This document shows positions 10,637 through 32,628 of a stretch of DNA of 64,000 bases, in pieces. Below the pieces are notes generated by a model. That model ran no database searches. It was given only the letters and a program-made list of their open reading frames with translations, and was not told the origin of the DNA. Both the position numbers and the translations under genes were made by a program. Position 1 is the first letter of the stretch; each line of letters begins with the position of its first letter. This DNA is from a virus, in the IMG/VR virus record IMGVR_UViG_3300033757_000225, positions 42-64,041 of that record; one strand, written 5' to 3'.

Positions 10637-12049
10637 TCAATACCAACCAAGGCTGGTATATCCGACATTCTTCACCACACCATGGTACCAGGGCACTTTC
10701 ACGTCAGGCGTTCCGAACAGCACGATCAGGAACGGCGTTACAGCGCTCTTGGTAGGATACAAGTCAAACTTCATAAGCGGCAGGAACTGATCCCACTGGA
10801 TTGACGGCTCAACAGGGTCAATCGACAGATACAGGATTTCGCCAGTGCCCGGCAGGTCTGCGTTCTGATCGAGATAAACCGTTGTAGAACTACCAGAATC
10901 CGCAATCCGCACCATCTCGCGAGTATCACTACCATCGACAGCATCTTTCTTGCTGCGGCAAATGATATAACCAGTCCCCTTGATTGATCCCGGAGTAATG
11001 GTAATCTTTACTTCCTTGCCGCCTGTAACTGCCACTGATGCCGCTGTTGCTGGATCTGAAATGCCATACTCATTGATTGCGTGTACCGTGTAGAAATAGG
11101 TTCCCGCATCATCCGTTACAAAGCCGGGGCTGCCACCACTTGATAGGTTCTGCGCTGTGAGCGCGAATGTGGGCGCAGAGGGTCTCTTGGTAACATCGCC
11201 ATTCGCAACGACATTGCCTTTCAAATGGAACATCTTGTCAGGGCCAGCTTCCTTGCCGGAAATCTTGATTGGATTCGAAAATGGAGTCGGATACTCTTCG
11301 ATGACCATTGCACCAGCGCGGTCAGCCGGATTCAGCCGCAATCTGTCTCTTGCAAGCACCTGGAAATCCTGAGCAATCATAGAAGGCATGAAGGCATGAG
11401 AAAGGTCGCCGCCGTTATCGTGCACCATGCGCGCCATTTCCGTAATCGAATCCTCACCACCCGCGTCAGTGATCTTTTTGCCGCGCAGGTCAACAAGGTT
11501 ACGACGTGAAGTGCTCGCAAGAATCTGTTTGATAACAGAATCAAACTGCACTGGCACCGCAGCGGAATCGCCATGGAACATTGCATATTCAGCGCCCTTG
11601 AGGATAGTAAGGGTTCCTGCCAGCTTCTCAGATGCAATCGCATCCTCGAGCGTTTTCGCAACCTGCATCTGGAGCGTAACCTCCCTGTAGGTCTGCAAAA
11701 ACTTCATCGGTTTTACGACGCGCTCAATGGACTGATCCGTTGCCCCAGATTCGCCGCCCTCGGCTGCAAAAATGTTTTTGTAGTCTCCGGCATCGTTTCT
11801 GCGGGTATACTCATGGATCGTTGACATTACTTTTTGCGTCTTGAGAAGATTCATGAGCTTGAAATCCTGCTTCTTTGCATCAAGAGCGGTCACAAGAGAA
11901 TTCTCAATATCCTGGGGGATCAGTGCACGCCCACCAGTCATATTCGCAGAATCGGTTCCTGCACCAGCGCTGAGTGCTTTAAGAAGGGCACCCTCGGAAA
12001 CCGATCCAAATCCAGTTTCACCAACAGCAGTCGGTTCAAAAAGGTTCAT
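10637..12049 (-). CDS. Major capsid protein
   Basis: LLKA-LSAG...GG.AL..QDIE N-terminus, STIHEY and KPMKFL motifs of SPO1/Twort-like capsids; start at 12049 fits GGAGG spacing. Confidence 0.92.
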   Translation of the reverse strand: MNLFEPTAVGETGFGSVSEGALLKALSAGAGTDSANMTGGRALIPQDIENSLVTALDAKKQDFKLMNLLKTQKVMSTIHEYTRRNDAGDYKNIFAAEGGESGATDQSIERVVKPMKFLQTYREVTLQMQVAKTLEDAIASEKLAGTLTILKGAEYAMFHGDSAAVPVQFDSVIKQILASTSRRNLVDLRGKKITDAGGEDSITEMARMVHDNGGDLSHAFMPSMIAQDFQVLARDRLRLNPADRAGAMVIEEYPTPFSNPIKISGKEAGPDKMFHLKGNVVANGDVTKRPSAPTFALTAQNLSSGGSPGFVTDDAGTYFYTVHAINEYGISDPATAASVAVTGGKEVKITITPGSIKGTGYIICRSKKDAVDGSDTREMVRIADSGSSTTVYLDQNADLPGTGEILYLSIDPVEPSIQWDQFLPLMKFDLYPTKSAVTPFLIVLFGTPDVKVPWYHGVVKNVGYTSLGWY

Positions 12050-12063
12050 TTGCATTACCTCCG

Positions 12064-13563
12064 TTACAGTGATTTCAGCATCCGCATATCCGCGTCACTG
12101 ATAGGCAGCCCTTTATTGAGCCGCTCTTCCATTACTCCCATTTCAAGCAGGGATATTTTCCCCTGCTGAACTGCTTCTCTTGCTTTTGCCATGATTTCGT
12201 CGCGCGTCATGCTTACATGCTCGCCATTGGCACCATTAAAGAAGCGCTCTTGGCGATTCAAAACCGCCTTGCGCGGGGACGGCTCTTCGGAGAGTGATTT
12301 CAGGAAAAGCCCAGTCGCGTGAACTGAGCTTCCAATCGCCTTTTGCAGCGATTCAACTCGACTGATCCTTGCAGAGAGCTCACCAATCCGATCTGAAATA
12401 GACTTGGTAAGGTCTCGCAAGAATGGAGTAACCTCAAGAAGGTCTCCATCCTCAACTTCAATTTCCTCATAGATCGACTTCTTGAGAGGCTTGGTGTTGC
12501 ATTTTTCCATGTACTCTTCATCCTCTCCCACACCCTCTTCCGACTCGAAGGGAACAGTTTTTTTCTTCTTTTTCAGCTGATCCTCTTCGCCCTCCTGTGC
12601 TTCATCTCCAGCATCTTCATCGTTTACAGGGGGGAATTCTTCATCGAATGAAGGCTGGGCCTCTTCCATCTCCTCATCTTCCGCCTTTGCTTTTTTCCCT
12701 TTGAGCCTTTTTTCGAGAGTATCAAGAGATTTCTGAAAGGCTTCCAGCAGCTTATTGTCTGCCATTTTGCTTACCTCCGTTTCCATGTGCTTGTCGTTCA
12801 AAATAGAACGCAATATTTTTTCAGCCTCAGCAGCGCTGTATCCTCGATTCATTAAAAACTCTTTTGCCTCATCGACGTCTTGTAGTTCTCCAGCAGCAAG
12901 AGCCATGACAACCGCTATTTTGTGCGGTTTGTCCTTTTTCTCATCACCTTCCAAATCTTGTGCAACCATCGCCTGGCCGCCCGTCATTCCCGCAGAGTTT
13001 GTTGCAAAGCCGGATGTCAGTGACTTCACGAACGCCGCACCAGAAAGCGCAATCGGCTCAAGCGTCTGATTGACGGGCTTGAAGGTGATTGCCAGCTCGT
13101 CCCACAATACCTTGGTGACCTTTTCTACAATCCGCCCTAATTTTTGATCCCATTCTGATACAACTTGTGGCCGGCGCCCGCCTACCGATGTTTTGAGCCT
13201 TGTCGAGCCATCTTTTAGCTTTTTAACAATGTCTTGCACGAGCGGGTTTGATTTATACAGCTTTGCTTTTACAAATGTTCCCTTCCCTACTTTATAGACG
13301 TCAATAGGCTCGCCAATGATATATTTCTCCGGAGTCCAATGCGGGTCTTCGGGATCAGCCCGTAAATGACGATGATCATAGCTGATAACGCCATTCTTGA
13401 GGAAATAGTCTTTAGAATCCAAGAGCGCTCTCTGTAAAACAATTTGACCATCGTAATCTAGGTTTTCGTTGGATGCTTCACATTCGATGATATAATTCCC
13501 ATTATCATCGGTTTCGATAGATTTTGAGAGTCGTAATTGTAGATATATTCTATCCTCGTACAT
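12064..13563 (-). CDS. Prohead protease fused to scaffold
   Basis: DYDGQIV, ISYDH (His) and TSVGG (Ser) protease motifs followed by an acidic coiled-coil scaffold; likely start MYEDRIY at 13563. Confidence 0.88.
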   Translation of the reverse strand: MYEDRIYLQLRLSKSIETDDNGNYIIECEASNENLDYDGQIVLQRALLDSKDYFLKNGVISYDHRHLRADPEDPHWTPEKYIIGEPIDVYKVGKGTFVKAKLYKSNPLVQDIVKKLKDGSTRLKTSVGGRRPQVVSEWDQKLGRIVEKVTKVLWDELAITFKPVNQTLEPIALSGAAFVKSLTSGFATNSAGMTGGQAMVAQDLEGDEKKDKPHKIAVVMALAAGELQDVDEAKEFLMNRGYSAAEAEKILRSILNDKHMETEVSKMADNKLLEAFQKSLDTLEKRLKGKKAKAEDEEMEEAQPSFDEEFPPVNDEDAGDEAQEGEEDQLKKKKKTVPFESEEGVGEDEEYMEKCNTKPLKKSIYEEIEVEDGDLLEVTPFLRDLTKSISDRIGELSARISRVESLQKAIGSSVHATGLFLKSLSEEPSPRKAVLNRQERFFNGANGEHVSMTRDEIMAKAREAVQQGKISLLEMGVMEERLNKGLPISDADMRMLKSL

Positions 13564-13577
13564 ATTCCCCCATGCAT

Positions 13578-13631
13578 AAAAAAGGCCGAATACCCCTTTT
13601 GTGGGATATCCGGCCCTCGTCTCCACTCGGC
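13578..13631 (-). terminator. Conserved leader plus intrinsic terminator, copy 1
   Basis: GCCGAGTGGAGACGAG, then a 13-bp stem GGCCGGATATCCC/GGGGTATTCGGCC, then T6; 53/54 identical to 56793..56846. Confidence 0.8.
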
Positions 13632-13707: not shown

Positions 13708-14829
13708 TCAATCAGAAAAACGCTCATGATTCAAAATTGCCCGCATCCGATCTGGATGCATCCCTCGTTGAGCCTCGATATAAGGTCTCCATTTCCTTAT
13801 TGCCGCCCATGCCTCCTCATTCTCATCCTCCCATGCTGCATTCTCGTTGCCGTGATAATAATTATATACCCGAATTGCGTATTCTGGAATCTTGGTTTCA
13901 AGCAATTCCTTTCTTCGGGCATCTTGTTTAGCTTGTGCTTCTCTTTCGGCTTCTCGCTTCTTTACCTTGATATCCTCAAGTTTATCTTTGGGAATCGACG
14001 CAATAATCTCTGATGCAAAAGGAGCCATCGCCCCTGGGCGCGTAGCCTGTGCTCTGCCATGAATTGTAACGTCGCGCCACGATAACTCTACTCCGTCTGC
14101 CTCATATTTATAGATTGGGTCGCCATCCATATCACCTGTCTGCGTAACGGTGACGGGCACATTGCCGCGTGGAATCTGCTTACGGAGCTTATCCGCCTCA
14201 GCGCGCATTTTGTCAAGCAGTAATTTTTCTTGTGCTGCCTCTTCTCCGCGTTTACCTCCCCGTTCTATTGCTTGTTTTAAGTTATTCTCCAGTGTGGCCA
14301 TTTCATACCTCTTAACAAGTGCCTGTAAATCTGGACGTGAATCTATTTTTAATGTTGGGACAACCATTGCCCCATTCACTTTTTCAGGCTTGAATCGAAC
14401 TACCTTCACGCCTCCATAATAATCCGGTACTCCGCCTTTAAGAGTCTTTCCATCGAGGGGGTTCCCTGGCGCTGATACCTGATAGGTAATGCCTTCAGCC
14501 AATAGCTTCCTATCTTCTTCACTATTCTGAGAAGACGGCTTCGCAGTAGTAGCTTGATTGCTATCAATCCCTCCCTCTTCACCTTGAGTGTCTTTTTTAA
14601 CCTCAACAACGAGCTTCGGCTTATCGGAATTTATCTTTTCTTCCAATTCCGATGTTTCAAATATATCCGGCTGCACTACCGAGGGCTTTTCATGCTGCGC
14701 CTCTTCCGGCAATACCCAAACTGTCGTCTGATATACCTTGCCATCGCGCGTAACCAGCATTTTCTTAGGTATAAGGCGTGGCGTTTTTTTCGCTTTCTCA
14801 AGAGACTCCATAAGGATATAGCTAATCAT
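13708..14829 (-). CDS. Accessory protein with shared N-terminal motif
   Basis: EKAKKTPRLIPKKMLVTRDGKVYQTTVWVLP...QPDIF; remainder unrecognised. Confidence 0.8.
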   Translation of the reverse strand: MISYILMESLEKAKKTPRLIPKKMLVTRDGKVYQTTVWVLPEEAQHEKPSVVQPDIFETSELEEKINSDKPKLVVEVKKDTQGEEGGIDSNQATTAKPSSQNSEEDRKLLAEGITYQVSAPGNPLDGKTLKGGVPDYYGGVKVVRFKPEKVNGAMVVPTLKIDSRPDLQALVKRYEMATLENNLKQAIERGGKRGEEAAQEKLLLDKMRAEADKLRKQIPRGNVPVTVTQTGDMDGDPIYKYEADGVELSWRDVTIHGRAQATRPGAMAPFASEIIASIPKDKLEDIKVKKREAEREAQAKQDARRKELLETKIPEYAIRVYNYYHGNENAAWEDENEEAWAAIRKWRPYIEAQRGMHPDRMRAILNHERFSD

Positions 14830-18000: not shown

Positions 18001-19957
18001 TGCTGCCATTTATCGTATCAATATCGTAATCATCTTTTGCTAAACCAAGCGCGCGCATCCGGATAATGGCATCCTCGTTGGAAATCTGACCAAGCGATAC
18101 TTCGATGGAATCCTTATCAGTTTTGCGTTTCAGTTCCAGCACCATCGCCGCACTCGCTTCAAGATTCCCCAACGCCTGCCCTGCGATCCTGTTTGCCGCG
18201 TCCAAGTATTCAAGTCGTGTCTCGTTAAGTTCAGCGACCATTGCCAAATCAGTAGGATTCGCATCAATTTCAGCCTGGAGGCTTTCTGCGCGAGCGATAA
18301 GCTCTTTCGCTCGCTCCGTTGCATCTTTTGCAATCGCTTCATTGATCTCTTTATGATACTTCTCCATTCCCACAGAGAAATCCTCATATTCCTCTTTCGA
18401 AAGATCGCGTCGAGCCATCATTGCAAGCAATTTCGCACTTGCTCCCACACCGAGAATATCAACTACATCGCGGTCCAACCCCTCATTCTTCAATGCAGCA
18501 AGTGCAATCGAGTTCAGGCCAGCATAATTGCCGTTGGCAATCCATTTGCCTGATCCACCAGTATTATTTTTAATCGTCTCCAAGAGCGAGGAATGTATTT
18601 CAGCTTGGCGCTCAATCGCCATCGCTTCCGCTTCGCTTTCGAGCTCGGCATCAAGCGCCTCTGAAAAGTCCAGCGATACGCCCCTGCCATACACAATATC
18701 TTCGGCACTCTCGTCGGCATCATCGACCGTTCCATCAAGGTTTATTTCCGTCGCCTTCTCTTTATTGCCTTCAATATTGTCAAGAGTTTGCTTCATTTCT
18801 AGGTATTTTTTGAGCAATTCGGCTTTGGTGTCAATTTCCGAGATCGGCTTTATATCTGGGTCCTCCGGCTCATAAAATGTCGATTTCGCATCTGCAATCG
18901 CCCTGCTCGTTCCAACCCCCGCGGCTATCATGGCTGCAGCGCCAGGATTCTCCATTGCAATTTCCTGAAGCCGGTCCTGGAACATTTTTTCTTTTTCTTC
19001 TGCAAGCTCTTCTTGGGTTAGTCCGTGTTCACTAGCGCTTTCTCGATATTCTTTTTGAAATCCCAGGCCTTTATTTTTATTTTCTGTTTTAATCTCTTCT
19101 TCAGCATGTGCTTGTTGTTGTATCATGGATTCAATCTGTTCGCGTAAGGATGGGTCAAAAATCATCTCTCGCCTGATATTCCTTATTACTTCTCTTGCAT
19201 GCGAGAGCAAGTTCTTTCTTTGAGCTTTCTTCGCCCGTTCTATCGCCTTGCCCGCAACCATTAAAGCTTTACGCGCATTTTTTATTTCCGCTTCGTCTCC
19301 CTTTTCCTCGGCATCAGCCAGCCGTGCTTGCAATTCTGCAATGATATGTTCTTTTTCCTCGTCGTAGTCTCTCTTTATTTCCCAGCCCATTTTATTGGCA
19401 ACGTGCTGGATAAATTCTTCTTGCACTTGCTCTGCTTGCTTTTTTTTCTCCTCTTCAAGCCTTCTCGCGAGCTCTTTTTCAGCTTTCTTTTGCTCTTTGT
19501 ATGCTTTGCGCTCTTCGTGAGTCATTTCCTCTAACCGCTTTTGCTCTGCGAGCCTCTCTTCCATGCGCTCGCGCTTTTTGGCTTCTTTACGGCGTTCAAA
19601 TTCCTCGGCATATTCCTCTTTTGATTTAATCTTATTTAGCTTTAATCCATTGAGCTTGCCACCAGCCCCAGCAATGACATGCGCAGTGCCGTTCCCTGTA
19701 TCCTGTATAAGTATGGGCTGCCCCTCTGATTCATCGCCATTCGGGTGGACAGTGATCCATCGCGCCCCAGCTGGAATTTTTGAAACTTTTGCTTTGCGAA
19801 GATAGGCGTTTACCACTTGAAGCGATTTTCGCATCGCAAGATATTCATGCGCAGTGAGCTCAATATAGTGCGAGACCTCTACATCAAGCGTTCCAGATTT
19901 TTCGAGTTTTCTCAATGCATCGTCGTCATAGCTGTATGATTGAATTTTGAAAAACAT
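15041..19957 (-). CDS. Large SNF2/SF2 helicase-domain polyvalent protein
   Basis: 1638 aa; GTGKGKT Walker A, DESH Walker B, SDAGATGLNLQ and QREGRIDRPGQ helicase-C motifs; long coiled-coil N-terminus. Confidence 0.88.
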   Translation of the reverse strand: MFFKIQSYSYDDDALRKLEKSGTLDVEVSHYIELTAHEYLAMRKSLQVVNAYLRKAKVSKIPAGARWITVHPNGDESEGQPILIQDTGNGTAHVIAGAGGKLNGLKLNKIKSKEEYAEEFERRKEAKKRERMEERLAEQKRLEEMTHEERKAYKEQKKAEKELARRLEEEKKKQAEQVQEEFIQHVANKMGWEIKRDYDEEKEHIIAELQARLADAEEKGDEAEIKNARKALMVAGKAIERAKKAQRKNLLSHAREVIRNIRREMIFDPSLREQIESMIQQQAHAEEEIKTENKNKGLGFQKEYRESASEHGLTQEELAEEKEKMFQDRLQEIAMENPGAAAMIAAGVGTSRAIADAKSTFYEPEDPDIKPISEIDTKAELLKKYLEMKQTLDNIEGNKEKATEINLDGTVDDADESAEDIVYGRGVSLDFSEALDAELESEAEAMAIERQAEIHSSLLETIKNNTGGSGKWIANGNYAGLNSIALAALKNEGLDRDVVDILGVGASAKLLAMMARRDLSKEEYEDFSVGMEKYHKEINEAIAKDATERAKELIARAESLQAEIDANPTDLAMVAELNETRLEYLDAANRIAGQALGNLEASAAMVLELKRKTDKDSIEVSLGQISNEDAIIRMRALGLAKDDYDIDTINGSKIATIHTPQKLLPTKSKEDIAIENRVSQIKAGLEDEDGWMPPGLVRRETDSFTDPGPDAEYAADSIENQSLADNADEIAKTEEAVHRTLGEMPEGRFVFKAVEDLTPEDQADLRRYWEKNIYKGSMAEQTATQDMQNIGGEAISRQGAWMQFLRGKCAGDKNIALELIRNDLIENHSFEDMFGEKDIPPLTKVVPGQWETYRGNVDGAEELFQQIDDLRDPDLVIDADAASREAEKLEKELPEKLTELYETQMRDHYLKFMSGYTEVQFEAGAERKEKSPWGEYVRMHGDVERAHAAVLDIAKGEFIEKFVKNYGRVTKKHLHTKVEKIRNWKDHVLGMLHKDVRDSFIDKVQAELASAGATVANRERGKFAAGSWKEKAIEYLEQKRKEDAAQLEMFGGEELKQNDGSEKISIGQRAEQQLASIVPQIAVNQRRGQKYAVASMNTKGERQRAIKMFEVAKRMNLTFGTGKGKTIISIASFTTLKDKGKAKRAIFAVPSVVQAQFGNEVNVFCKPGKYRVKSDPGLSREERIQALKDGNLDMVVMTHQSLRDDLIHIMARNNGLDDNAMKAKFNAMRPDERVKTLGDAMKKEGISFDMLTVDESHYTMNRKGKEDATLANVVDALNQNVEYFMNQSATPVKNDISEAYDMLHKVDPKKFNNRDEFMKKYGVDPEFSQRSLQRLIDRYNYASKTVTGTVRNDHKEEIDLTPEQKSEYDKVLQMFKQASKASKEGRVDVEAMKYLSPNSFRNVPEEKHEDIAKRLQESAGVIKEEALNRVVNQFDGDKNAKVQRLMDIVSSNVYQADNPKTNAHAGDRKPGVIFTHNLATLAMLRQSLEKKGVRVGVIQGSMNGAQKEEVKVGFNPPNPKDRVYDVIICSDAGATGLNLQNAAYLVNYDLPQTAWVKQQREGRIDRPGQAHSEIDYFDLVTKTPHEQAKWDRIQRKKALGSIFEEDPGILDDTGLASRIANVRQERYNKGLEVKGVAA

Positions 19958-19971
19958 TCTCGCCTCCGCTA

Positions 19972-22900
19972 TCAGTCATCCAATAATCTAAAGGACTTCA
20001 AGAGCTCTTCATTCTCTGCAAAAAACCGCTCTACCAATGGAAGTATCTTAGACTTGTAAGTCTCTTCTTGTACATAAATTGACTTGTTTTTATCAAAAAG
20101 CAAATTCAACTTGCCATTTTTCAGCATATAATATTCCTCAAGAGCTCGCGCAAAACATTCGCAAGTACGATTGATATAGATCGATGTTTGCGGTCGCATC
20201 ATTTTCTCTCGGAATGTGCGCGCAATCTGCCCAGGCAGCGAAGACCAGTTATCAGATGCAAATTGGTACCTTCCCGTCTGCAATGCAAGATAGTGATCCA
20301 TGAAGTGCGCCCACTCGTGTGCAAGCGTCATTCCGCCTAAATCCCTGCCAGCCTTAAACGTAACTCCAATAGCATGATAATTGGGTATAAAGATTCCAGA
20401 TGCGTTACGAGCATGCATGAGCACCTGCCCAGAATGGCTGATTTTCAGTCCGAATTTCCGCGCCATTGATGCACGATTGCCAAATACGGCATAGACATCA
20501 TCAAGCGCTTTCCGAATATCGTCAATTTCTTTCTGAGTAATCGCGTCGCCATTCTGTCGTTTTACCAACACCCCATATTGATCAAGCAAATCGGGCTTCG
20601 TTCCTTTATCTCCATAGGCAGTCTCCCTCCCCTTCGAAAATACAGAATAGTTCTCTTCCAACTGAATATTCATATCGTCGAGCTTTTGTTTCAAGTCTTT
20701 GATCGCATCAGTAACGGGCTTAAAGCGTTCATTCCCGCGAAGATTCAAGAATGTTTCAGCTAATAGGATATTTCTTGTTGTTACGCGCTTATCGCTGATA
20801 ACGGTAAGGCGAGGCATTTTGAGCCTACTAGCATATTCTTTGAATTCTTTTATTTTCTCCTCATACCATTGTCTATGCAATGCCTTTGCTCGTTTCAAGT
20901 AATAATCTTGGGTGGCCGCAAGGACATCAAGGTTGACTACCGCATATCCATTACTGGTATTTATGGCATAGGAATTATCATCCAGTTTTATTGCCTCTAC
21001 TCGATATTGTTGGACCCTAAAAGCATAATCCTGAATTTCTGGTATCCATGAAGGACGCTTTTTATCAAGAATATTTTTTTCAGTCACCAGGCTAATCCTT
21101 GAAGGAATAACATCCCGATAATCAAGGCCGGTTTTACCTTTTATTAGTTCCACCACCTTCGGCGTAAATTCATATTCCGGCATTGACGCCTGGCCGAAAT
21201 TTACCCCCATAAGCGATGCAGTAATTGCGGCGCGATTTTCAGGCCCCGCGCTGCTTATGAGCCTATGGATCGCTTCGGCTGCTTCGACAGGAAAAATCTC
21301 ATCAATCGACTCAAGTGGCGCATGCTCCCCATTTTCCAAATCAACAACGCCATCAGAGACTTTGAGAATCTTGGAAGTTTTATATCCGTTTTCGCTTTTG
21401 TATCGAATTGCAGTACCCGCTGTAAGATTCTTTACGATATTTGTTATTCCCGATTGACTATAATCATCATCAGTAAAAAGCTCCCCCTGCTGTTTGTTTT
21501 CTTCATCTTGCCGAACCCATACGCGCATTGAAAACACAGATCCGCCCCTGTGTACCGTCTGCTGAATAGGCACAAGTCCAGGCGTTATTTTTGCCTTTTC
21601 AAAGTGATCTCCCGTCATCGCTTTTACAACATATTTTTGCCCTTTGACAAACTTATCCTTTTCAGCAATTTCGATATGGTATTTTTTTGCGGCACGCATA
21701 ATCCTGTTCCAGATAGCGCGGCGCTGATCGGGATCATACTTGCTATAATTGCGCGGCATTGAGAAATATGCCATAGCTGCCAGTACATGCTCCTCTGTAT
21801 CGAGCGGATATTTGTAATTATTCGGATCGGCGTATTCTTTTTTCTCTTCAGGATAGCCTTTTGGGGGAGTTTTGTGAGAATATTCTGTATCTCCGGCTTC
21901 GGGAAGCGCCTTTCTCGTTCTATTCGCCTGCTCGGTTAGATTATAGCTTTCAATAGCATCTTTTCTTCCTGGCATCATAACAGCGCCATTTGGTGTAATA
22001 ATCCAATCTGGACCTCCATCCTCATTATAGAACTTGAGTAATGCCCACCAATCTGGATTATCATAGGCACCAGCCGTATCAACAATATCCCTGGGAGCAA
22101 ATGCCTGCCGAACTTCACGCTCAAAAGTATCAAATGAGACCTCATCTTCATCTGTTGCGGCGCTTATATCATTGTATATTGTTTCAATCAGGTCTCTGTC
22201 TTCCTGATTCAGCTCGTCTTTTTTATATAATTCCCAAATCCCATGCAATTTTTCGATAAACCGATTCATGTCTTCGCTGTGCTCGTTAAAAAAATCGGCA
22301 ACGGTGGCATGCGCCGAAGGTTTTGCCAGCCACACACTTCCACCATTCCCCGCATAGGACTTTGCTGTATCAATATTCGTGCTGAACAGAGTGGGCCATT
22401 CATCATTCCCATACTCTTTCCCTGGCCTTCTCCCGTGCACATACATTCCATCCGGCAAAGGCACTTCTCCATCCAACAGTTTCTCAGCAAATTCTTTACT
22501 CTTAAAATTGTTTTTTGTCTTTACTGGCTTATTATCTTTATCTGGACGCACCCATTTCTCGGCTCTATATACCTTCCCCATGCGAGTGACCAGAATGGGC
22601 TTTTTCACTAATTTTGCACGATTGATCGCTTTGCTGATAAAGCCGCGCTTCTCTTTTGCATGTTGCATGTCAGCATGATCTACGATATACTTATCTGATA
22701 TGGAGGACTTAGCAATGGATTCTCCCGACTTTGATTCATTGAGATTTTTCGAGCTTGACGATACACCATTTGCGAGAGACCCAAAATCTTGGAACCTCTT
22801 TAGAGTTCGCTCTGAAAGCCAGCTTGAACCGTGCGACTCCAAAATATTTGCTGACATTTTCCAGAATGGCAGAGAAATATCCAAGAAGGAAGCGCTCAAA

Positions 22901-23715
22901 TTGGCCGCATCCCGATGGCCCGAAGAAACCTCCCAGGCGAATTGATAGATTCTTTTCTGCGCCAGGATCGCATAATGATATGGCGCAGGCGGTGGTGGTG
23001 GCGGAATCTGCCCTTCCGCTTCCCGTGTTATTTCATAGAATAGGTGTCCATATTTTTCTTTCGCTTCAATCATTGCCTTCGTATTCAGCTGTATTTCTGA
23101 AATCATCCCGTTTGGCAGTTTGACATTGATATTTACTCCCCGATACCCCGCCAGTGTCGGTGTCGCATAGTAATTCTTTATTCTGATTACGCGAGGGTCT
23201 TTCATGAAATAGTCAAGCGCCTTACCAATCCCCTCCAGATTATCAAACACAAGGGTGTGCCCATCGATATCATAGATCATGCTGGCATCGGTCGCGCCAT
23301 CTTCGGCCATTTTTTCTTTGACCCGTTCACGATTTTTTAGAGTGGGCCTCGACAATAATTCGCTTGCTCCGAGCTCGTCCTTGAGCTTCTCCATCACCGC
23401 GCGAAAATCGCCCCGAACCGCTTCGGCCATCTTATAAAGCTCATCAATATCACCCGTCGGCTGTACCATATCCTTTCTGGGACAATCCTTTTTATTGTTA
23501 GGGTCAAACAGCCGCTTAACCACATCATTTTCTGGAGCATTATTCCTCTCGTTTTTCGGATATTCCCCAGTGAGGATTTTCATATTCGTTGGCTTTGGCT
23601 CATCGATTCCTGGGCGCACCCATCTATGCTGCTGAAATGTTTTGCCGTCGCGCGTAATTGTGACAGGTTTTTTTACAAGTCTGCTCGTGTCAAGCGCCTT
23701 CACTACCAGCATCAA
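19972..23715 (-). CDS. Polyvalent protein: RelA/SpoT-like nucleotidyltransferase + ART-like + DUF6582-like + zincin peptidase/LPD
   Basis: LK, D..G, GYRGVN, EIQLNT, H.FYE (RelA/SpoT); HG...FST....A.SYA (ART); YADP.NYKYPLDTEEHV (DUF6582-like); HEWAH and CFARALE (metallopeptidase/LPD1-like). Confidence 0.85.
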   Translation of the reverse strand: MMLVVKALDTSRLVKKPVTITRDGKTFQQHRWVRPGIDEPKPTNMKILTGEYPKNERNNAPENDVVKRLFDPNNKKDCPRKDMVQPTGDIDELYKMAEAVRGDFRAVMEKLKDELGASELLSRPTLKNRERVKEKMAEDGATDASMIYDIDGHTLVFDNLEGIGKALDYFMKDPRVIRIKNYYATPTLAGYRGVNINVKLPNGMISEIQLNTKAMIEAKEKYGHLFYEITREAEGQIPPPPPPAPYHYAILAQKRIYQFAWEVSSGHRDAANLSASFLDISLPFWKMSANILESHGSSWLSERTLKRFQDFGSLANGVSSSSKNLNESKSGESIAKSSISDKYIVDHADMQHAKEKRGFISKAINRAKLVKKPILVTRMGKVYRAEKWVRPDKDNKPVKTKNNFKSKEFAEKLLDGEVPLPDGMYVHGRRPGKEYGNDEWPTLFSTNIDTAKSYAGNGGSVWLAKPSAHATVADFFNEHSEDMNRFIEKLHGIWELYKKDELNQEDRDLIETIYNDISAATDEDEVSFDTFEREVRQAFAPRDIVDTAGAYDNPDWWALLKFYNEDGGPDWIITPNGAVMMPGRKDAIESYNLTEQANRTRKALPEAGDTEYSHKTPPKGYPEEKKEYADPNNYKYPLDTEEHVLAAMAYFSMPRNYSKYDPDQRRAIWNRIMRAAKKYHIEIAEKDKFVKGQKYVVKAMTGDHFEKAKITPGLVPIQQTVHRGGSVFSMRVWVRQDEENKQQGELFTDDDYSQSGITNIVKNLTAGTAIRYKSENGYKTSKILKVSDGVVDLENGEHAPLESIDEIFPVEAAEAIHRLISSAGPENRAAITASLMGVNFGQASMPEYEFTPKVVELIKGKTGLDYRDVIPSRISLVTEKNILDKKRPSWIPEIQDYAFRVQQYRVEAIKLDDNSYAINTSNGYAVVNLDVLAATQDYYLKRAKALHRQWYEEKIKEFKEYASRLKMPRLTVISDKRVTTRNILLAETFLNLRGNERFKPVTDAIKDLKQKLDDMNIQLEENYSVFSKGRETAYGDKGTKPDLLDQYGVLVKRQNGDAITQKEIDDIRKALDDVYAVFGNRASMARKFGLKISHSGQVLMHARNASGIFIPNYHAIGVTFKAGRDLGGMTLAHEWAHFMDHYLALQTGRYQFASDNWSSLPGQIARTFREKMMRPQTSIYINRTCECFARALEEYYMLKNGKLNLLFDKNKSIYVQEETYKSKILPLVERFFAENEELLKSFRLLDD
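22663..22691 (+). promoter_or_regulatory. Internal antisense sigma70 promoter
   Basis: TTGCAT (22663-68), 17 bp, TATACT (22686-91), followed by GGAGG (22702-06) and ATG (22715). Confidence 0.7.
22715..22945 (+). CDS. Embedded antisense small protein, candidate immunity/antitoxin for the RelA/SpoT domain
   Basis: 76 aa MDSPDFDSLRFFELDDTPFARDPKSWNLFRV...GREISKKEALKLAASR with own promoter and RBS; the host frame here is Ser-rich low complexity, as expected for a shadow. Confidence 0.65.
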   Translation: MDSPDFDSLRFFELDDTPFARDPKSWNLFRVRSESQLEPCDSKIFADIFQNGREISKKEALKLAASRWPEETSQAN

Positions 23716-27100: not shown

Positions 27101-29643
27101 TTAACTTCATAGGTTTTCGTAGGAGCGGCAATATAGTTATTGAATGTTTTATTGTAAAGCAATTCTATTTGATCTCGGACATTTTCGTGGTTTGCAACCC
27201 ACTGAAGGAAGTTGTCCAGCGTCTTTCTATTGTACGCTTCCGTATCATTGTATTTCGAGCGCTGCTTTTGATTATTCAAGAAGTAGATAACGGGGTCTGC
27301 GAGCTCTAACCATGACCCTTCAGGTGTAACCTCTGTTTCTCCGGTTTCTCTGTTATAATTGTAATAGTTTCTTTCTGCAATAGCCCCCCATTTCCCAGTC
27401 TCTTTATTCCGCGCTACCTGTTTAATTTCACGCCCATATATGCCGCGATTAAGTGTGTTCAGCCCATCTTCTGCATGTATCCAGTCATTGATAATACTTT
27501 CCGGTATCCAGGAGGACTGTGGACTGAATTGCGCATCTTCGATTGGCGTCCATTTAATCGCCTTCTGTATTTCTTGAATACCATACTCCCATTTTTTGCG
27601 TTCCTTCTCCCACTTCTCATCAGGGTGGCTATCAATGGCATCTTTGAGGGCTTGTATCTTCTCCCATACCTCCCCTGAGATAAAATCTTCGCGCAATTCG
27701 TAAGAGCCTTCCGGTGTAAGGAATACATCTTTGTGCTCCATCATTTGCGTAATCAGTGATTCCGCTTCATTCGGAAAATAATGGCGGACATTATCAACCG
27801 TTGCCTCCACCATGTTTTTCTGTAGCGTCAGCAATGCGTCAATAACCGGATCATTCCCGTTGAAGACTTCGATATTTTTTTCGTAGATATTCGGCTTTGT
27901 GAGGACGTCAGCATCAATATTCAAGAGCCCCTCGTATACCCCCGCAACCGCTGCATGTTCACGGAGCACTCTTCGAATGTCCTTATCTTCAGCCGGAGTG
28001 GTGTTATATTTCTTCTCATATTCTTGTATCAGCGAGCGTGCGTTCATTTGCAGCTCATCAACCGGTTTGCCTGCCTGCATGTTTTCGCGTATGGTTTGTA
28101 CAATACTGGCAATCGCAGTGACTTTCTGCATCTTCTCGGCAGCGATTTCACTCGCGGAGGGTACAAGCTCCCATCTGTGATTCTCATTCAGTCGGTACAA
28201 TCTTCCATTCTCGCTCTTCGTCATGCCGACGGTTAATGTTTTTGCGGCGATAGCATCTGCTTCGCTTTCCGTCACCCGCATAATGCGTGGCACTTCCGTT
28301 GGTACTTCGCCTGCATCACTTTCTTGCATAGCAATATTTGCAAGCCGAGACGCATCATCGGTTGTTTTTTCGGGCTCGATCTTTATATCTTTGACAAGCT
28401 CATCCAGCACTTCGGGCGTGAGATCGCCCTGTACAACATCGCTTCCCCAGTTTCCCTTACCTTCTAGCACATCGCCAATAACGTTTTGCTCATATGTCCC
28501 ATTCACCCATGCATCATGCCAAAATCCCGATTTCTGCATTTCCTCATCCGAAATGGCCGCAAGCTGTTTTGCGATTGCGTCTGGATATTTTCGGAAAAGC
28601 AAAATAATTGGCTGCACGGCTGTTTGTGTGTGCTTGAATGACTTATTGGGCAGCTTCACCGCTCCCATGAATTGCGCTTGACGAATTATCTGAGCTCTCC
28701 AGTCGCGTGAGAGATTATTCTCAAGTACACCAGGATGCACAATCATTGCCAATACGCCGCCCTGTGCAAGGTTATCGATTGACCGCGAAACGAAATACCG
28801 ATCCAGGCTCTTTTCCTCTGGCATATCAATAAAACTCGTCTCAACGGATCGATCCCCAAATGGCGCATTGCCAATCACATATTCGAATTTATCTTGATTG
28901 TATAGGTTGAATACTTCATAGCTTGTTGGTTTTATTGCCACGTCCGGCTGAAGAATGGCCGCCACCGCAGCCGATCGCGCATCTAGTTCAACGCCCGTGC
29001 ATTTTACCTCTTTCGGCGCCACATCAAAGAATACCCCCGTTCCACATGAGGGCTCCAACACTTTATCTTCAGGCTGAATCTTGCGAATCTTGTTCATAAT
29101 CTGCCACATGGCGCGCGCGAGTGGCGGAGATGTGTAAAAATCATAGAGCACGCCGCGCTCGTCTGCCTGAATACCACCAAAACCAGAATATCGGCGTATT
29201 TTCTCTTTATCTTCTTCGGTGATAGTGTCCCTTCGCTTGGTCACCAGGTCGGCCACTTCCGCATTGATCTTTTCTCGTTCCTTGACACCGAGATGCTTGC
29301 CGTTCGAGCTCCATGAACCATAATCTCGGAATTGAGTGTCTTTTATTGGCTTTGCCAGTGGTACTATAGAGCTCGTTTCGCGCGCAGTCTGCCGTTCCTG
29401 TTCTTTATCCTTGATATCCCCTGCCTCTGGCTGCTCGGTTTCATCCTCATCTTGAAACAAATCGGGTTGCACCATGGAATAAGATTCTTTTTTTATCTCG
29501 GAAGGTAGAACCCATACGCGCTTTTGGAATATCGTTCCATCGTCATTGCGCACAGTAATGATTTTCGGCACCAAGCGCGGACTACGCCGTGCTTTCTCAA
29601 TCTGTGCTTTCGCGTTTTGTAGTATTTTGCGCATAAACAACAT
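24103..29643 (-). CDS. DarB-like N6-adenine methyltransferase + SNF2 helicase
   Basis: 1846 aa; VLEPSCGTGVF (motif I), VIGNAPF (motif IV variant), GTGFGKT, DEAHNYKN, GEGVNLQ, QRNGRVDRQG. Confidence 0.9.
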   Translation of the reverse strand: MLFMRKILQNAKAQIEKARRSPRLVPKIITVRNDDGTIFQKRVWVLPSEIKKESYSMVQPDLFQDEDETEQPEAGDIKDKEQERQTARETSSIVPLAKPIKDTQFRDYGSWSSNGKHLGVKEREKINAEVADLVTKRRDTITEEDKEKIRRYSGFGGIQADERGVLYDFYTSPPLARAMWQIMNKIRKIQPEDKVLEPSCGTGVFFDVAPKEVKCTGVELDARSAAVAAILQPDVAIKPTSYEVFNLYNQDKFEYVIGNAPFGDRSVETSFIDMPEEKSLDRYFVSRSIDNLAQGGVLAMIVHPGVLENNLSRDWRAQIIRQAQFMGAVKLPNKSFKHTQTAVQPIILLFRKYPDAIAKQLAAISDEEMQKSGFWHDAWVNGTYEQNVIGDVLEGKGNWGSDVVQGDLTPEVLDELVKDIKIEPEKTTDDASRLANIAMQESDAGEVPTEVPRIMRVTESEADAIAAKTLTVGMTKSENGRLYRLNENHRWELVPSASEIAAEKMQKVTAIASIVQTIRENMQAGKPVDELQMNARSLIQEYEKKYNTTPAEDKDIRRVLREHAAVAGVYEGLLNIDADVLTKPNIYEKNIEVFNGNDPVIDALLTLQKNMVEATVDNVRHYFPNEAESLITQMMEHKDVFLTPEGSYELREDFISGEVWEKIQALKDAIDSHPDEKWEKERKKWEYGIQEIQKAIKWTPIEDAQFSPQSSWIPESIINDWIHAEDGLNTLNRGIYGREIKQVARNKETGKWGAIAERNYYNYNRETGETEVTPEGSWLELADPVIYFLNNQKQRSKYNDTEAYNRKTLDNFLQWVANHENVRDQIELLYNKTFNNYIAAPTKTYEVKIDGWNPNITLGKHQWQTIHHLYRQGKGISALGTGFGKTLAAIGLVGILRQEGKARRVMIQVPNNKVKDWVKAFGKAMPKLKVRAVDPETKGYGDQVKRYAMYQDIANSDSDVIILPESAASEIQLSPEHDDELTEEFVQDQVVETAKMSARKKEIAKEKARSSLHGGKKNKTITFEDFGADALVVDEAHNYKNLFVSSLSREVGMNDGRRSDRAMSLFKKSMYLQKQKDGKNVFMLTATPLTNSPLEYYNMLMHIAPEELKRLGLKTIDDFISNFADITVGPKYEWASGEVKEGKILKGFRNLQALQNIFFKYTDLQNDPDAIGLKKPSANNVPHILPKEEQQADVIKGLAKEVENYRNMDSEQREKSFPGQNFLTFYAKLRTASLDLELYNPHKYKGWVNPKLETLAQNAYESYKSTGGGQVIFCDRVLSGDGSFNMHEKIKQRLIAQGFTDSEIVIVNGLTKSGTMQSDQALEREVSQAIDGYNSGKYKVIIGTTQTLGEGVNLQKNSAALHHLDIPFRPSDFTQRNGRVDRQGNKQDKVALHTYMAAGTIDSYSIALVQGKANWIDQLLKTKSNIFFNPNDGSYIDADELLLALTQEFGGEEAVRQKREEIQKQKTEALQKANLEKVHSLLGAYSTLRYAVRTFNGDKGSIAFQNRMRKLREIEDTLRSNPEFKHLDLLDDDAPDFVYQKDTKTVYRMGDMLTFKRLGGAFKVVGIDHKTNTLQLQQLLQGIDGPDTASIKLDSEDASRRYYASGEEMHRNHFARPSETDIAKFQSLGNINEFIKQDKEFKEQNFDTLFYTLPSKSQYSDSARVPYFVTESYSNSLKGIVRGNELYGSLLNPYKKEDQETILSSMKDVDNMDDTAANILDNPVYLDAMGEELKKTAKEVYDHSKEKPLIEQAVKNANGEWVRLDDFVTEKERAGYLDWRASRTIPVLLKYAQKYEFAKDLRPNDWAELYFREKQNAEMAKSFNGYRLVIRYKGSRTRIKGVRHVL

Positions 29644-29654
29644 CGTGCACCTTC

Positions 29655-30941
29655 CTAGCTATTGTATAGCTCGTTGATTCTTTCTATATATCCTGGCGTT
29701 GCGTCGGTAGGATTCTTAATTCCCTTCTCCGCAAATTCAGCCTTTGCTTTATCCACAGCATCAGCCCACTTGTTTTGTCGCCCCCTCAACTTTGCCATAG
29801 CTGCATCAAAGCTCAGCCCTTTATTTTTTTTATTCGATGATGGAGGCTCCCATCGTGCCCATGAACCGCGACAAAAAGGATGCTGGGGGCCTGCGGCAAC
29901 CCATGAGTCGCTCGTCTTGTGTCCCACCCGTGTTTTCCCTTCCCATATTGCAATCTTCGCATAGGGATCATCGATTTTCTCATCATTCAATGGCACATCG
30001 GACCACAGCGCGACAATTCCGTTTATCCTGCGACAGTGCGGGCAGGTTACTTTGTCTCTTACTTCAATTCGCTGAAAATAGACTTTTCCCCCTTGTTCGG
30101 CCTGGCTACGTTCACCGAGTAGGAAAGCGCTGTCCAGATTATCCGCTGTTTCGTATTCAACTATGCGCGTCCAGTCTCGATTTAGGCTTCCTAGCGAATC
30201 GAAAAGGCTTTGTGCGACTTCCGATTTTGTTTTTTTATCTTTTACACCATTTATAAGCGCCTGCCGGATCGTTGAGCGTGCTCTGTCATCGATTGCGCGT
30301 ACATACTGCGCAGCGCTCTCTTGTGCAATCTGTATGCGACCAAGCTCATAATCACTCAGATCGAAGATCTTCTTCAAGTTCTTGATATCATCAGTCACCC
30401 AGTCAAAACTTCGATTCTTATACTTGACATCTTTTAGTCCGAGCTTGCTCACTGCTTCCCATGTATTGTACTTCAGCATACGATTCAGTATTCGGCCAGC
30501 GGCCACGGCGTCAAGAACAATCTTCTCGCCTGCTTTGCTCAACTTGCTGTTAAGATATCGTTCAATCGCAGAGAGGAACGCCTCCCATTGCCGTTTTGTG
30601 ATAGGCAACCCAGTTTCTGGAGAATACAGAATCTTGCCCTTCCATATCAGCCAATCATCCTCAAGCGCTTTCGAAAAGGTAGTTACCATTGGTAAATCGA
30701 GAACGGCACATATTTTTTTGTAAAGTGTGTCCATAATATCCGCAAAGTATTTCGTCCACTTTTCAACTAGCTCATCATGGAGCTTATATGGCGAACGCTC
30801 GGCCTTTTCGTCGTCGTCCTTGCGCTTGACCGTAATAGGAATATCGAGCGCCTTTGCAAGTGCCCGTGTTGCAGCGAGATATTTTTGTCGTTTATTCCCT
30901 TCGCTTATATCGCGAACGGAAAGCTGGATGTTTCTCATCAA
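29655..30941 (-). CDS. MuF/gp7-like head morphogenesis protein
   Basis: After the portal; RDWTRIVEYE, CPHC and HPFCRG motifs of the MuF family. Confidence 0.8.
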   Translation of the reverse strand: MMRNIQLSVRDISEGNKRQKYLAATRALAKALDIPITVKRKDDDEKAERSPYKLHDELVEKWTKYFADIMDTLYKKICAVLDLPMVTTFSKALEDDWLIWKGKILYSPETGLPITKRQWEAFLSAIERYLNSKLSKAGEKIVLDAVAAGRILNRMLKYNTWEAVSKLGLKDVKYKNRSFDWVTDDIKNLKKIFDLSDYELGRIQIAQESAAQYVRAIDDRARSTIRQALINGVKDKKTKSEVAQSLFDSLGSLNRDWTRIVEYETADNLDSAFLLGERSQAEQGGKVYFQRIEVRDKVTCPHCRRINGIVALWSDVPLNDEKIDDPYAKIAIWEGKTRVGHKTSDSWVAAGPQHPFCRGSWARWEPPSSNKKNKGLSFDAAMAKLRGRQNKWADAVDKAKAEFAEKGIKNPTDATPGYIERINELYNS

Positions 30942-30945
30942 ACAC

Positions 30946-32628
30946 CTACATTACATATCTGCCCAACCTTGCCAGGTAGGATTTCCAATTCTTTCCTTCA
31001 GGGGCAGTAAGATAGTCGAGAATGATATGGTCCGGATTACCATTTGCTTTATTCTTATCCGCCCATGCAGAGGCATCCTCTTTCAACCGCTTAACTATAT
31101 CCTCATGCTCCGCAATGTTGTCTGCAAATCTATCCGGCGGCACAATATCAAAAAAATCACGCACGCTCATTTTTCTAATACCGTCACCACCAACCGAGGT
31201 GGACTCAGTAGAGCTCTCGCGAGCTGATTGGTTCTTCTTATTCATGGCCGCAACATATTCCTTTACGACCTCATCCGACCTTCCCACTTTATCATTCTCA
31301 TATGCCCATTTCGCTGCGGCAAGCCGGAACTTGTCGATATCATCATATTTTCTGCTTCCAGCGTAATTCGACATACGGGCGCTATCCATATCCAAGATAT
31401 CGCGTACTGTCTCATCAGTATTCTTTGGTGGCCCTATCGTCTTCCTTCCTTCAAAAGTCGTGTCCTCAAAGGGCAACTTCTTGCCATTAGCATCTAAGTG
31501 CCTCGCATCCGTTTTTTGCGTCCGCACACCGCCTTCTTTTCTTGTATACTTTTCAATCCGATATGGGCCAAACGAAATGCTATCTATATTCGGCGTGTTT
31601 TCCAGCTCTTCCATTGCATCGAGTATCTTTGTGGCGTCTGTTTCACTCACATCCATTCCGTGCACATCACTTGCGTCAAGTTTGTCATTTTCATCACTGT
31701 AATCATATCCAATCTTCATTGGCTTGTCGTTTATGTAAACACGAAAAGACTGCATTATAAAATCTTTTGCGTGTTTAGGTTTAGCATCTCCCGCATTCGT
31801 ATCTTTGCTATAAGCCTTTTCGTAGAATGATTTATCCGCCAAAATATCATTTTCGACCTTTTCTTGCTCTTCTTTTGCGGTTGAACTGTATTGTGGAAAA
31901 TTGATTTTAGCAAAGGCATAATGCGTATCACCGGCAATACGCAATTTATAATCCGGCTCTCCAAATCGCACAAGTTCCGCATTACCGCGCCCTACCTGCC
32001 TCAGCAAATCTTTATATTCAGCGTCGGTAATAACTTCTTTGTTTTCCGAATTGATTATCTTTTTCTGCGCCGGATCAAAAACATATTGAATTTTAGCCGA
32101 CTTCCGTTCGCCAGGAATCTGGATCATGATTTTTTTATTAGGCATTTTTTTCGGGAATTCATCCAAATATTGCAAAAAATCTCTTATATTGCTACCATAT
32201 CTTTTGCTATAATTATCAACTTCAATTTTCTGTCTCAGCTTTCTCCCGCGTTCACTCTTTGGACCACCAGGTAACGTAAACAATTCCCCATTTATTTTTG
32301 TTAATCCAGCCTCTCGCAATTCCTCATTATCAGCTTCTTGCCTGGGCTGCTTTGCGCCTGTTTCTTTTGCTGTCGTAGTATGGACAGACTCATTGCTATA
32401 AGGATCACCATCAAATAAGTCACCTTGTGCAATCGTTATTTTTTGACTGTTCGCCTCTTCTGGCAAAACCCATGCCCAGCGCTGATACGGCTTCGTTTCC
32501 CCATGAACGGTAATCAATTTGCGCACAAGTTTCGGATTGTGCCTGGCTTTGAGAAATGCAACGTCAAGCGCACCAAGTTGCACAAATAGCCGTGGTATAG
32601 CTCGGAATATTATTTTACTCATACACAT
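30946..32628 (-). CDS. Accessory protein with shared N-terminal motif
   Basis: FLKARHNPKLVRKLITVHGETKPYQRWAWVLP...QGDLF; remainder unrecognised; start may be 32622. Confidence 0.8.
   Translation of the reverse strand: MCMSKIIFRAIPRLFVQLGALDVAFLKARHNPKLVRKLITVHGETKPYQRWAWVLPEEANSQKITIAQGDLFDGDPYSNESVHTTTAKETGAKQPRQEADNEELREAGLTKINGELFTLPGGPKSERGRKLRQKIEVDNYSKRYGSNIRDFLQYLDEFPKKMPNKKIMIQIPGERKSAKIQYVFDPAQKKIINSENKEVITDAEYKDLLRQVGRGNAELVRFGEPDYKLRIAGDTHYAFAKINFPQYSSTAKEEQEKVENDILADKSFYEKAYSKDTNAGDAKPKHAKDFIMQSFRVYINDKPMKIGYDYSDENDKLDASDVHGMDVSETDATKILDAMEELENTPNIDSISFGPYRIEKYTRKEGGVRTQKTDARHLDANGKKLPFEDTTFEGRKTIGPPKNTDETVRDILDMDSARMSNYAGSRKYDDIDKFRLAAAKWAYENDKVGRSDEVVKEYVAAMNKKNQSARESSTESTSVGGDGIRKMSVRDFFDIVPPDRFADNIAEHEDIVKRLKEDASAWADKNKANGNPDHIILDYLTAPEGKNWKSYLARLGRYVM

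Follow-up and report, generated by a model that had tools for sequence, protein, structure and literature searches.

The subject of this analysis is P0001, a 1247-amino-acid (aa) polyvalent protein encoded in a 64,000-nucleotide stretch of viral DNA (IMG/VR record IMGVR_UViG_3300033757_000225, positions 42 to 64,041; hereafter the window), which is nearly all of a 64,688-bp record with direct terminal repeats. On balance, P0001 is probably a packaged polyvalent effector that is cut by the prohead protease at the motif phi-x-K↓[A/S] (phi, hydrophobic residue; the arrow marks the predicted cut) and ejected with the DNA. The evidence consists of a shared ~35-aa tag, the conservation of the motif at the module junctions of P0001, the presence of the same motif in the capsid and protease-scaffold proteins, and the occurrence of the modules as separate genes in related phages.

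The module order that a first-pass annotation had read from the letters alone was borne out: tag, RelA/SpoT, linker, tag, ART-like domain, 'RKA', DUF6582, KA plus tag, barrel and HExxH zincin (Table 1). Several unrelated effector domains (RelA_SpoT, ART-fold, DUF6582 and zincin) are thus present in one polypeptide.

The tag has the consensus phi-x-K-A, five residues, then LVKK..V.R.GK.Y....WV.P, and could be aligned over about 38 residues; no Pfam or NCBIfam model covers it. When the whole phage record was searched with a hidden Markov model (HMM) of the tag, exactly six copies were found, three inside P0001 and three at the N-termini of the DarB-like, 373-aa and 560-aa proteins, which are otherwise mutually unrelated. 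Sharing of the tag was limited to head-module proteins. Conservation was counted over 35 distinct copies from the window phage and homologues. The Lys of 'K-A' was invariant, the next residue was Ala in 28 copies and Ser in 5 (33/35) and otherwise Pro or Gly, and the spacing from K-A to the L-V anchor was a constant five residues, except for a one-residue deletion in three copies. In an AlphaFold2 (AF2) model, the third tag of P0001 formed, at low confidence, a short helix followed by a beta-hairpin, with a predicted local distance difference test score (pLDDT) of 45-73 and with the K-A within the short helix. Complex prediction with the capsid protein, the scaffold part and the tag gave a score of 0.00 with an uncertain partner fold, which speaks neither for nor against binding. 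A T4-like site after the tag (WVLP-x-E↓A) was considered and dropped, as type-i tags (WVRPG/D/N) lack it and phi-x-E-[AS] was flat in the capsid and scaffold statistics.

Conservation of the K-A/S sites, on which the first-pass annotation had staked its reading, was found at the junctions: of the 15 homologues aligned at K707↓A, 12 had phi-x-K-[AS] there, for K1240↓S the figure was 21 of 27, and six intradomain K[AS] dipeptides of P0001 that were tested were kept in 0-1 homologues. At least 90% of homologues had LLK[AS] at the end of the zincin module. Modules without a hairpin were flanked in a similar manner, since InPase was preceded by K-S-L in 12 of 16 cases, including the protein starts MDSILVVK↓SL and MPKIVPMEK↓SL with their short hydrophobic leaders, and DUF6582 was followed by F-x-K↓S in three homologues. 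Taken together, 13 polyvalent homologues contained 113 motif sites vs 55.7 expected. The claim that a KA site stands before each enzymatic module was correct in that sites are present at all the listed junctions; it needs to be qualified for the 'RKA' before DUF6582, which lacks a hydrophobic P3 residue.

The same motif was observed in the proteins that build the head. The capsid protein begins with ALLK↓ALSAGAGTDSANMTGGRALIP (longer reading, ...ALLK↓ALSAGAGTDSANMTGGRALIPQDIE), and the segment after ALLK resembles the start of the mature HK97 capsid protein. This N-terminal phi-x-K↓A was kept despite diverged flanks, as ALVK↓ALE in L019 and EIRK↓AFE in Leptospira jelokensis (L024). The capsid maturation site of HK97 is K103/S104 (PMC10275583). 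In the protease-scaffold protein, the protease domain is followed by ...AAFVK↓SLTSGFATNSAGMTGGQAMVAQDLE, and the protease-scaffolds of five related phages, with scaffold parts down to 23% identity, contained 10-14 phi-x-K-[AS] sites vs ~2 expected (5-7x), a number reached in 0 of 2000 shuffles for each phage. Six control motifs, including the reversed motif and R, E, G/T and D/E variants, were flat in these proteins. Multiple sites in the scaffold are what would be expected of a prohead protease, which makes several cuts in the scaffold. Of the 10 proteins encoded from portal to capsid, 8 also had the motif in their first 60 residues, vs 5 of 28 others (Fisher p 8.6e-4), a comparison weakened by the fact that the head-module gene set was defined post hoc, with the data already seen.

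Two further observations concern these proteins. For ~30 residues after K↓[AS], the capsid (11900-11986) and protease-scaffold (12940-13032) segments are alike and co-vary between phages: the pattern common to both is TDS..MTGG.A..xxD.E in the window and ..DPG.MGTGGNTLQ in L019 (11028-11100 and 11923-12060). Judging from these sequences, the first segment of the scaffold may be a mimic of the capsid N-arm that fits into the same site. The MuF/SPP1 gp7-like protein has ALAK↓A[LM] ~30 residues in (aa 28-31, 30849-30860), kept in the window, L001 and L002, which suggests that this protein might be trimmed too.

The candidate protease is the N-terminal domain of the 520-aa protein, in which a His and a Ser were invariant. 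Among its language-model neighbours, the nearest named clusters were Peptidase_S78 (0.95) and then S77, and the domain looks S78/HK97-like; the family assignment draws on these neighbours and on a PHROG match to 'head maturation protease' (phrog_1028). P2 gpO-type proteins provide a parallel, being fusions of a protease and a scaffold in which the scaffold is degraded. The zincin module was present in every related phage examined, and co-occurrence therefore cannot separate the zincin from the prohead protease as the responsible enzyme. Since the motif is common to the capsid protein and the scaffold, the prohead protease is favoured over the zincin.

Relatives carry the modules of P0001 in both fused and split forms. 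In L002, P0007 stops just past DUF6582, the next open reading frame (ORF; 536 aa) opens with the tag and zincin module, and the gene boundary lies at the exact place of the 698/707 sites of P0001. The combination of tag, barrel and zincin was found as an ORF of its own in P0006, P0009, L002 and L013. The ORFs that start with a tag in these syntenic relatives were, in L001/L017, a DarB-like protein, a Zeta toxin (558 aa) and a tag-barrel-zincin-InPase protein (P0006, 722 aa); in L009, four ORFs, a Zeta toxin among them; in L013, five ORFs, including ART-PolyVal + InPase (408 aa) and a DUF5661-tag-Zeta toxin fusion; and in L018, a 457-aa RelA_SpoT ORF. InPase, ART-PolyVal, LPD1, LPD3, DUF5661 and RadC were shuffled in varied order among the P0001 homologues. 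The check proposed in the first-pass annotation, a search for relatives with the modules as separate tagged ORFs, was therefore positive for two modules, RelA/SpoT and zincin; a tagged form of the aa 406-600 domain on its own did not turn up in the lineage. One polyvalent homologue, P0005 (1695 aa; L010:9257-14410), has an intein (Intein_splicing + LAGLIDADG_3) inside its InPase domain.

On the reading that we favour, P0001 would be made as one chain and recruited to the procapsid through its ~35-aa tags, each a short helix and a basic beta-hairpin, and the DarB-like methyltransferase-helicase and the 373-aa and 560-aa proteins would be co-loaded by the same tag. As the head matures, the serine prohead protease (N-terminal domain of the 520-aa protein) would then cleave on the C-terminal side of Lys at those phi-x-K↓[A/S] junctions that are exposed. 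The predicted sites in which we have most confidence are K6↓A7, K362↓A363, K707↓A708 and K1240↓S1241; K698↓A699 is probable, and K602↓A603 and K336↓S337 are weaker. The expected products are (i) tag + RelA/SpoT nucleotide pyrophosphokinase, about 330-356 aa, (ii) tag + ART-fold enzyme, about 240 aa, (iii) DUF6582, about 96 aa, and (iv) tag + barrel + zincin, about 533 aa. Because the K↓A is situated at the N-terminal border of the tag, each product would keep its hairpin after release. The fragments would remain in the head, leave with the DNA and act on the host. Processing of P0001 by the prohead protease is well supported by the comparison of related proteins, whereas we infer its packaging, its cleavage, the choice of protease and its ejection.

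The first-pass proposal that the modules are released on head maturation is partly supported: junction conservation, the split ORFs and the shared capsid/scaffold motif speak for it, and several points weigh against it. (i) K[AS] dipeptides were not enriched in P0001 (18 vs 15 expected); a plain count was for this reason rejected as evidence, and the signal lies in position and conservation. Even the full motif was only about twofold enriched in P0001 (8 vs 3.8), and 35 of 1000 shuffles reached 8. (ii) At the K602 site P3 is Thr and not a hydrophobic residue, and conservation is lacking at K336. (iii) The 520-aa protease gave no Pfam or NCBIfam match and no meaningful PDB sequence match, either with the single sequence or with an 8-sequence profile, and the embedded zincin is an alternative protease. 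(iv) The tag is downstream of the site and would be kept on the fragment, unlike the T4 capsid-targeting sequence; the invariant K-A of the tag could be a structural or binding part and not the scissile bond. (v) Some N-terminal leaders are ~5 residues long, so that their removal seems of little use. (vi) Very large cargo can enter the head uncut, as exemplified by the N4 virion RNA polymerase (cited in PMC5512222).

The last point leads to the alternative that P0001 is packaged and ejected essentially full-length, with the K-A and hairpins as multivalent anchors (to capsid, scaffold or DNA) left from gene fusions, with the N-terminus trimmed at most and with the enzymes acting while joined. 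Unprocessed packaging of the N4 polymerase is a precedent, the K-A, at its constant distance within a conserved element, may have a structural role, and the modest enrichment of the motif in P0001 is compatible with this explanation. However, phi-x-K-[AS] also flanks hairpin-less modules (InPase, DUF6582 and the zincin C-terminus), and it marks the capsid N-terminus and is enriched in the scaffold, which an anchor-only role can hardly explain. We consider packaging and ejection of essentially full-length P0001 unlikely.

It is still less probable that P0001 is self-processed by its C-terminal zincin, in the head or after injection, and that the prohead protease is uninvolved. None of the 28 homologues departs from the HExxH and downstream Glu, the fold is like that of M34 endopeptidases, the module is in all related phages examined, and self-release has been proposed for polyvalent proteins by Iyer et al. 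(PMC5512222). On the other hand, the motif is at the capsid N-terminus and strongly enriched in the protease-scaffold, the usual prohead-protease substrate; tagged proteins devoid of a zincin (DarB-like, Zeta toxin and RelA_SpoT ORFs) retain the site; and the zincin module itself is tagged like other cargo. Finally, although packaging of P0001 is something we infer, it is very improbable that P0001 is a non-virion, late intracellular multi-enzyme with repeats that serve as linkers and have no targeting or cleavage role, since the gene is inside the head module beside DarB-like and Ulx-like genes, the tag is confined to head-module proteins and the motif statistics argue otherwise.

A broader proposal is that the ~35-aa element is a portable load-and-release code, with the protease-scaffold or the inner capsid face as its receptor, that the protease frees each tagged module, and that other lineages use analogous tags (HPRxxxGKF, WITVNG) on the same effector domains. 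We put this forward tentatively and regard it as possible but doubtful. The following observations were made on motifs of this kind. The N-terminus of the 1638-aa SNF2 helicase carries a second hairpin-type motif (19703..19801, minus strand), consisting of YLRK↓A, ~8 residues and RWITVHPNG....G.PILI; the motif was kept in L001 and L002. 'WITVNG' is the start of unrelated phage proteins that carry the ART-like domain (P0076, P0085), and it preceded the ART-fold domain in 3 proteins of other lineages. HPRxxxGKF was found ahead of the ART-fold domain in at least nine proteins of other lineages (P0039, P0045, P0066, P0070, P0090, P0105, P0120, P0122 and P0129), and P0048 has 'VSGYTRKDGTYVAEH' where its relatives have HPRxxxGKF; HPRxxxGKF and the P0048 motif may be lineage-specific address tags, analogous to the window tag. 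The distant homologues P0017-P0019 and P0034-P0036 have a hairpin-tag-like C-terminal peptide (..KK.FIKKKNP.TGK.EYRKV) after the zincin LLK↓A, and tags may thus be used C-terminally as well.

The domain assignments rest on the following results. In the RelA/SpoT module, the PF04607 match had a score of 33.8 bits vs a gathering cut-off of 27, and the synthetase motifs DxxG, GYR and EIQ could be read by eye. The helical extension of the module is kept in homologues; aa ~242-330 (most of 22663-22990) showed protein-level conservation in P0003, P0007, P0030 and P0031, and the minus frame is therefore under selection there.

The ART-like domain (aa ~406-600) has no Pfam or NCBIfam model. An exhaustive HMMER search yielded 95 representative relatives, the smallest being solo proteins of 200 aa and the largest 3000-5000 aa long. 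In an alignment of 50 relatives, the H and G of 'VHGR' were invariant and R, a Tyr and an Asp were present in at least 90%; a check of the catalytic triad (H-Y-E / R-S-E) identified no conserved Glu among them. The AF2 model from the alignment of the domain had a pLDDT of 94.7. When 48,161 chains were searched by structure independently of Foldseek, ART folds made up most of the best ~35, with low Z scores (3.4-5.3). The ART-fold neighbours in Foldseek and the independent search, at Z 2.9-5.3 overall, were AcrIF11, diphtheria toxin, PARPs, RES, ParT, MbcT, exotoxin A, Tpt1 and Arr, and the ESM-Atlas neighbours were DUF3990, Arr, RES and ART-PolyVal at TM 0.3-0.44. Membership in Pfam ART-PolyVal was rejected, since PF18760 did not match aa 380-620 at E values up to 10 and pairwise BLAST of the domain against ART-PolyVal domains was not significant. 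A match to the cyanophage A4 pre-ejectosome (Z 5.1, E 3e-3) was too weak to be used, and the paper on that structure makes no mention of an ART domain. From these low-scoring but one-sided results, we read aa 406-600 as a divergent domain of ART fold that carries a helical insert.

In the zincin, H1133, E1134, H1137 and E1193 were the residues invariant in the 28 homologues. The AF2 model of the C-terminal 548 aa, made with these homologues, had a pLDDT of 80.6 with the zincin-like domain well modelled, and the nearest solved folds in Foldseek were PPEP-1/2/3 (Pro-Pro endopeptidases) and the anthrax lethal factor catalytic domain (prob 0.75-0.96, E 0.08-0.15). Pfam LPD1 (PF18796) did not match P0001; sub-cut-off LPD1 matches were seen in P0010 (E 2.6e-4) and the 536-aa protein of L002 (E 8e-4), and in P0015 a match of 2.5e-18 is located at the HExxH of a much longer, differently built C-terminal stretch. 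The small beta-barrel, which the first-pass annotation called KOW-like, gave no Pfam match.

Several parts of this picture are already known: the polyvalent class, the polyprotein analogy, capsid targeting of P1 DarB, and trimming of cargo by prohead proteases in T4, P1 and phiKZ/SPN3US. Polyvalent proteins of phages and conjugative elements were described by Iyer, Burroughs, Anand, de Souza and Aravind in 2017 (PMC5512222), who noted the RelA/SpoT domain for Spirochaetes prophages and drew an analogy to polyproteins with domain release by embedded zincin peptidases. Like these proteins, P0001 is a multi-effector chain among late/head genes with RelA/SpoT, ART, zincin MPTase and LPD-type modules; unlike them, its junction code is the capsid/scaffold motif, which points to the prohead protease and not to embedded peptidases. 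A term search of the main text of PMC5512222 found no mention of a packaging signal, N-terminal motif or junction motif.

In T4, IPI-III and Alt have a capsid-targeting sequence that is cut by the prohead protease gp21 at a motif common to capsid and scaffold (PMC9026906; cited in PMC9024508). The likeness is a short N-terminal peptide on unrelated cargo with a simple, shared protease motif; the differences are that in T4 the motif reads L/I-x-E↓ and cleavage takes the targeting peptide off, whereas here phi-x-K↓A/S is upstream of the hairpin, and that T4 cargo consists of single proteins, whereas P0001 is a multi-enzyme chain with internal tags. In P1, a capsid-targeting sequence makes up the first 30 aa of DarB (PMC9024508), and DarA and the capsid protein are both prohead-protease substrates (PMC12810830). 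DarB-like and Ulx-like genes adjoin P0001. However, the P1 authors found no consensus common to the Dar N-termini (PMC9024508), whereas one is obvious here, and P1 has no internally tagged polyprotein. HK97 gp4 (Peptidase S78) and gp5 resemble the present system in the predicted cut after Lys and before Ser/Ala at the start of the capsid N-arm, and differ in that the window motif extends to accessory cargo proteins. In SPN3US, head proteins, ejection proteins included, lose N-terminal propeptides to the prohead protease (PMC10052503); as proposed here, many internal head proteins of phiKZ/SPN3US have a short motif at which they are cleaved, with repeated cuts in long propeptides (PMC10052503), but the motif is [A/S/G]-x-E↓, and propeptides are removed without separation of enzymatic modules in one chain. 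Full-text word searches of the literature found no paper describing the tag or the motif. New with respect to the literature searched are the defined shared tag, a junction motif identical to the capsid/scaffold motif, and the coincidence of gene boundaries in relatives with the junctions.

As to the gene and its surroundings, almost every gene of the window is on the minus strand, and that of P0001 follows the terminase, portal and MuF genes and precedes those for the protease and capsid protein. In the public gene call, P0002 is the same protein with 1246 aa, beginning at an ATG one codon downstream, and the ATG at 23712 is likely the true start. Megablast of the P0001 gene against 50,697 phage records gave no match, and tblastn of the protein against phage records brought up LE1-like Leptospira phages, at 38% for the C-terminal module, and a Bordetella phage, for the RelA/SpoT part, but no others; the host of the phage is probably a spirochaete. 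The 373-aa and 560-aa proteins gave no PHROG, Pfam or NCBIfam match, and no DarA/Hdf homologue was recognised in the window.

Table 1. Features of P0001 and of the head module, with positions in the window. Sites are predicted; iE, independent E-value.
Feature	Residues or site	Positions	Strand	Basis or remark
P0001, 1247-aa polyvalent protein	aa 1-1247	19972..23715	-	uninterrupted ORF from TTG
Tag copy 1	aa 1-38; VVK6↓A7 (23695-23700)	23602..23715	-	tag HMM, iE 1e-19
RelA/SpoT module	aa ~60-336; Pfam core aa 126-221 (23053-23340)	22708..23538	-	PF04607, E 4.6e-8
Weak site at end of RelA/SpoT module	IAK336↓S, P0001 aa 336		-	
Tag copy 2	aa 357-394; ISK362↓A363 (22627-22632)	22534..22647	-	tag HMM
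ART-like domain with helical insert	aa ~406-600	21916..22500	-	AF2 + structure comparison
Tagless junction before DUF6582	K602↓A603 ('RTRK↓ALP')	21907..21912	-	K[AS]LP in 5/5 homologues with the module
DUF6582 domain	aa 625-686	21658..21843	-	PF20223, E 3.6e-18
Junction + tag copy 3	YVVK698↓A699; tag aa 702-739, FEK707↓A708	21499..21624	-	tag HMM
Small beta-barrel, 4-5 strands	aa ~769-808	21292..21411	-	AF2 strands, pLDDT 67-82
Zincin-like metallopeptidase module	aa ~850-1240	19996..21168	-	phrog_22901, E 8e-81, aa 758-1241
Zincin motifs	HEWAH; ECFARALE	20305-20319; 20137-20160	-	
End of zincin module	ELLK1240↓S1241	19993-19998	-	conserved
Tag of 373-aa protein	N-terminal, SLEK↓A	14698..14811	-	tag HMM
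Tag of 1846-aa DarB-like protein	N-terminal, QIEK↓A	29491..29610	-	tag HMM
Tag of 560-aa protein	N-terminal, AFLK↓A	32449..32565	-	tag HMM
Capsid protein N-terminal site	ALLK26↓A27, then LSAGAGTDSANMTGGRALIP	11975..11986	-	
Protease-scaffold fusion, 520 aa	11 phi-x-K-[AS] sites, incl. AAFVK201↓S202 (13021-13032)	12064..13626	-	
Head module, gene 1: terminase		34269-35870	-	
Head module, gene 2: portal		32632-34272	-	
Head module, gene 3: 560-aa protein			-	
Head module, gene 4: MuF/SPP1 gp7-like protein			-	
Head module, gene 5: 1846-aa DarB-like methyltransferase-helicase			-	phrog_10089, E 8.6e-118
Head module, gene 6: 127-aa Ulx-like protein			-	phrog_1629, E 1.2e-10
Head module, gene 7: P0001			-	
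Head module, gene 8: 1638-aa SNF2 helicase			-	
Head module, gene 9: 72-aa ORF			-	
Head module, gene 10: 373-aa protein			-	
Head module, gene 11: 520-aa 'head maturation protease'		12064..13626	-	phrog_1028, E 1.2e-24
Head module, gene 12: capsid protein			-	weak SU10_MCP match

Polyvalent proteins are widespread in phages, and the published proposal for them is self-cleavage by embedded peptidases. The motif phi-x-K↓[A/S] connects capsid maturation, scaffold degradation and the junctions of cargo modules, and the tag marks each cargo unit; cleavage at the junctions would account for modules that are fused in one phage and split in the next. The aa 406-600 domain represents a sizeable family without a Pfam model; it comprises 95 representative clusters, and in many of these the domain is part of a giant phage protein. 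The tag itself suggests a transferable signal to load proteins into phage heads. If the notion of a portable code were true, fusion and fission of tagged genes would be selectively neutral and injected effectors could be freely shuffled, polyvalent proteins would as a rule be polyproteins cut by a prohead protease, and the tag would offer a means of delivering proteins of choice.

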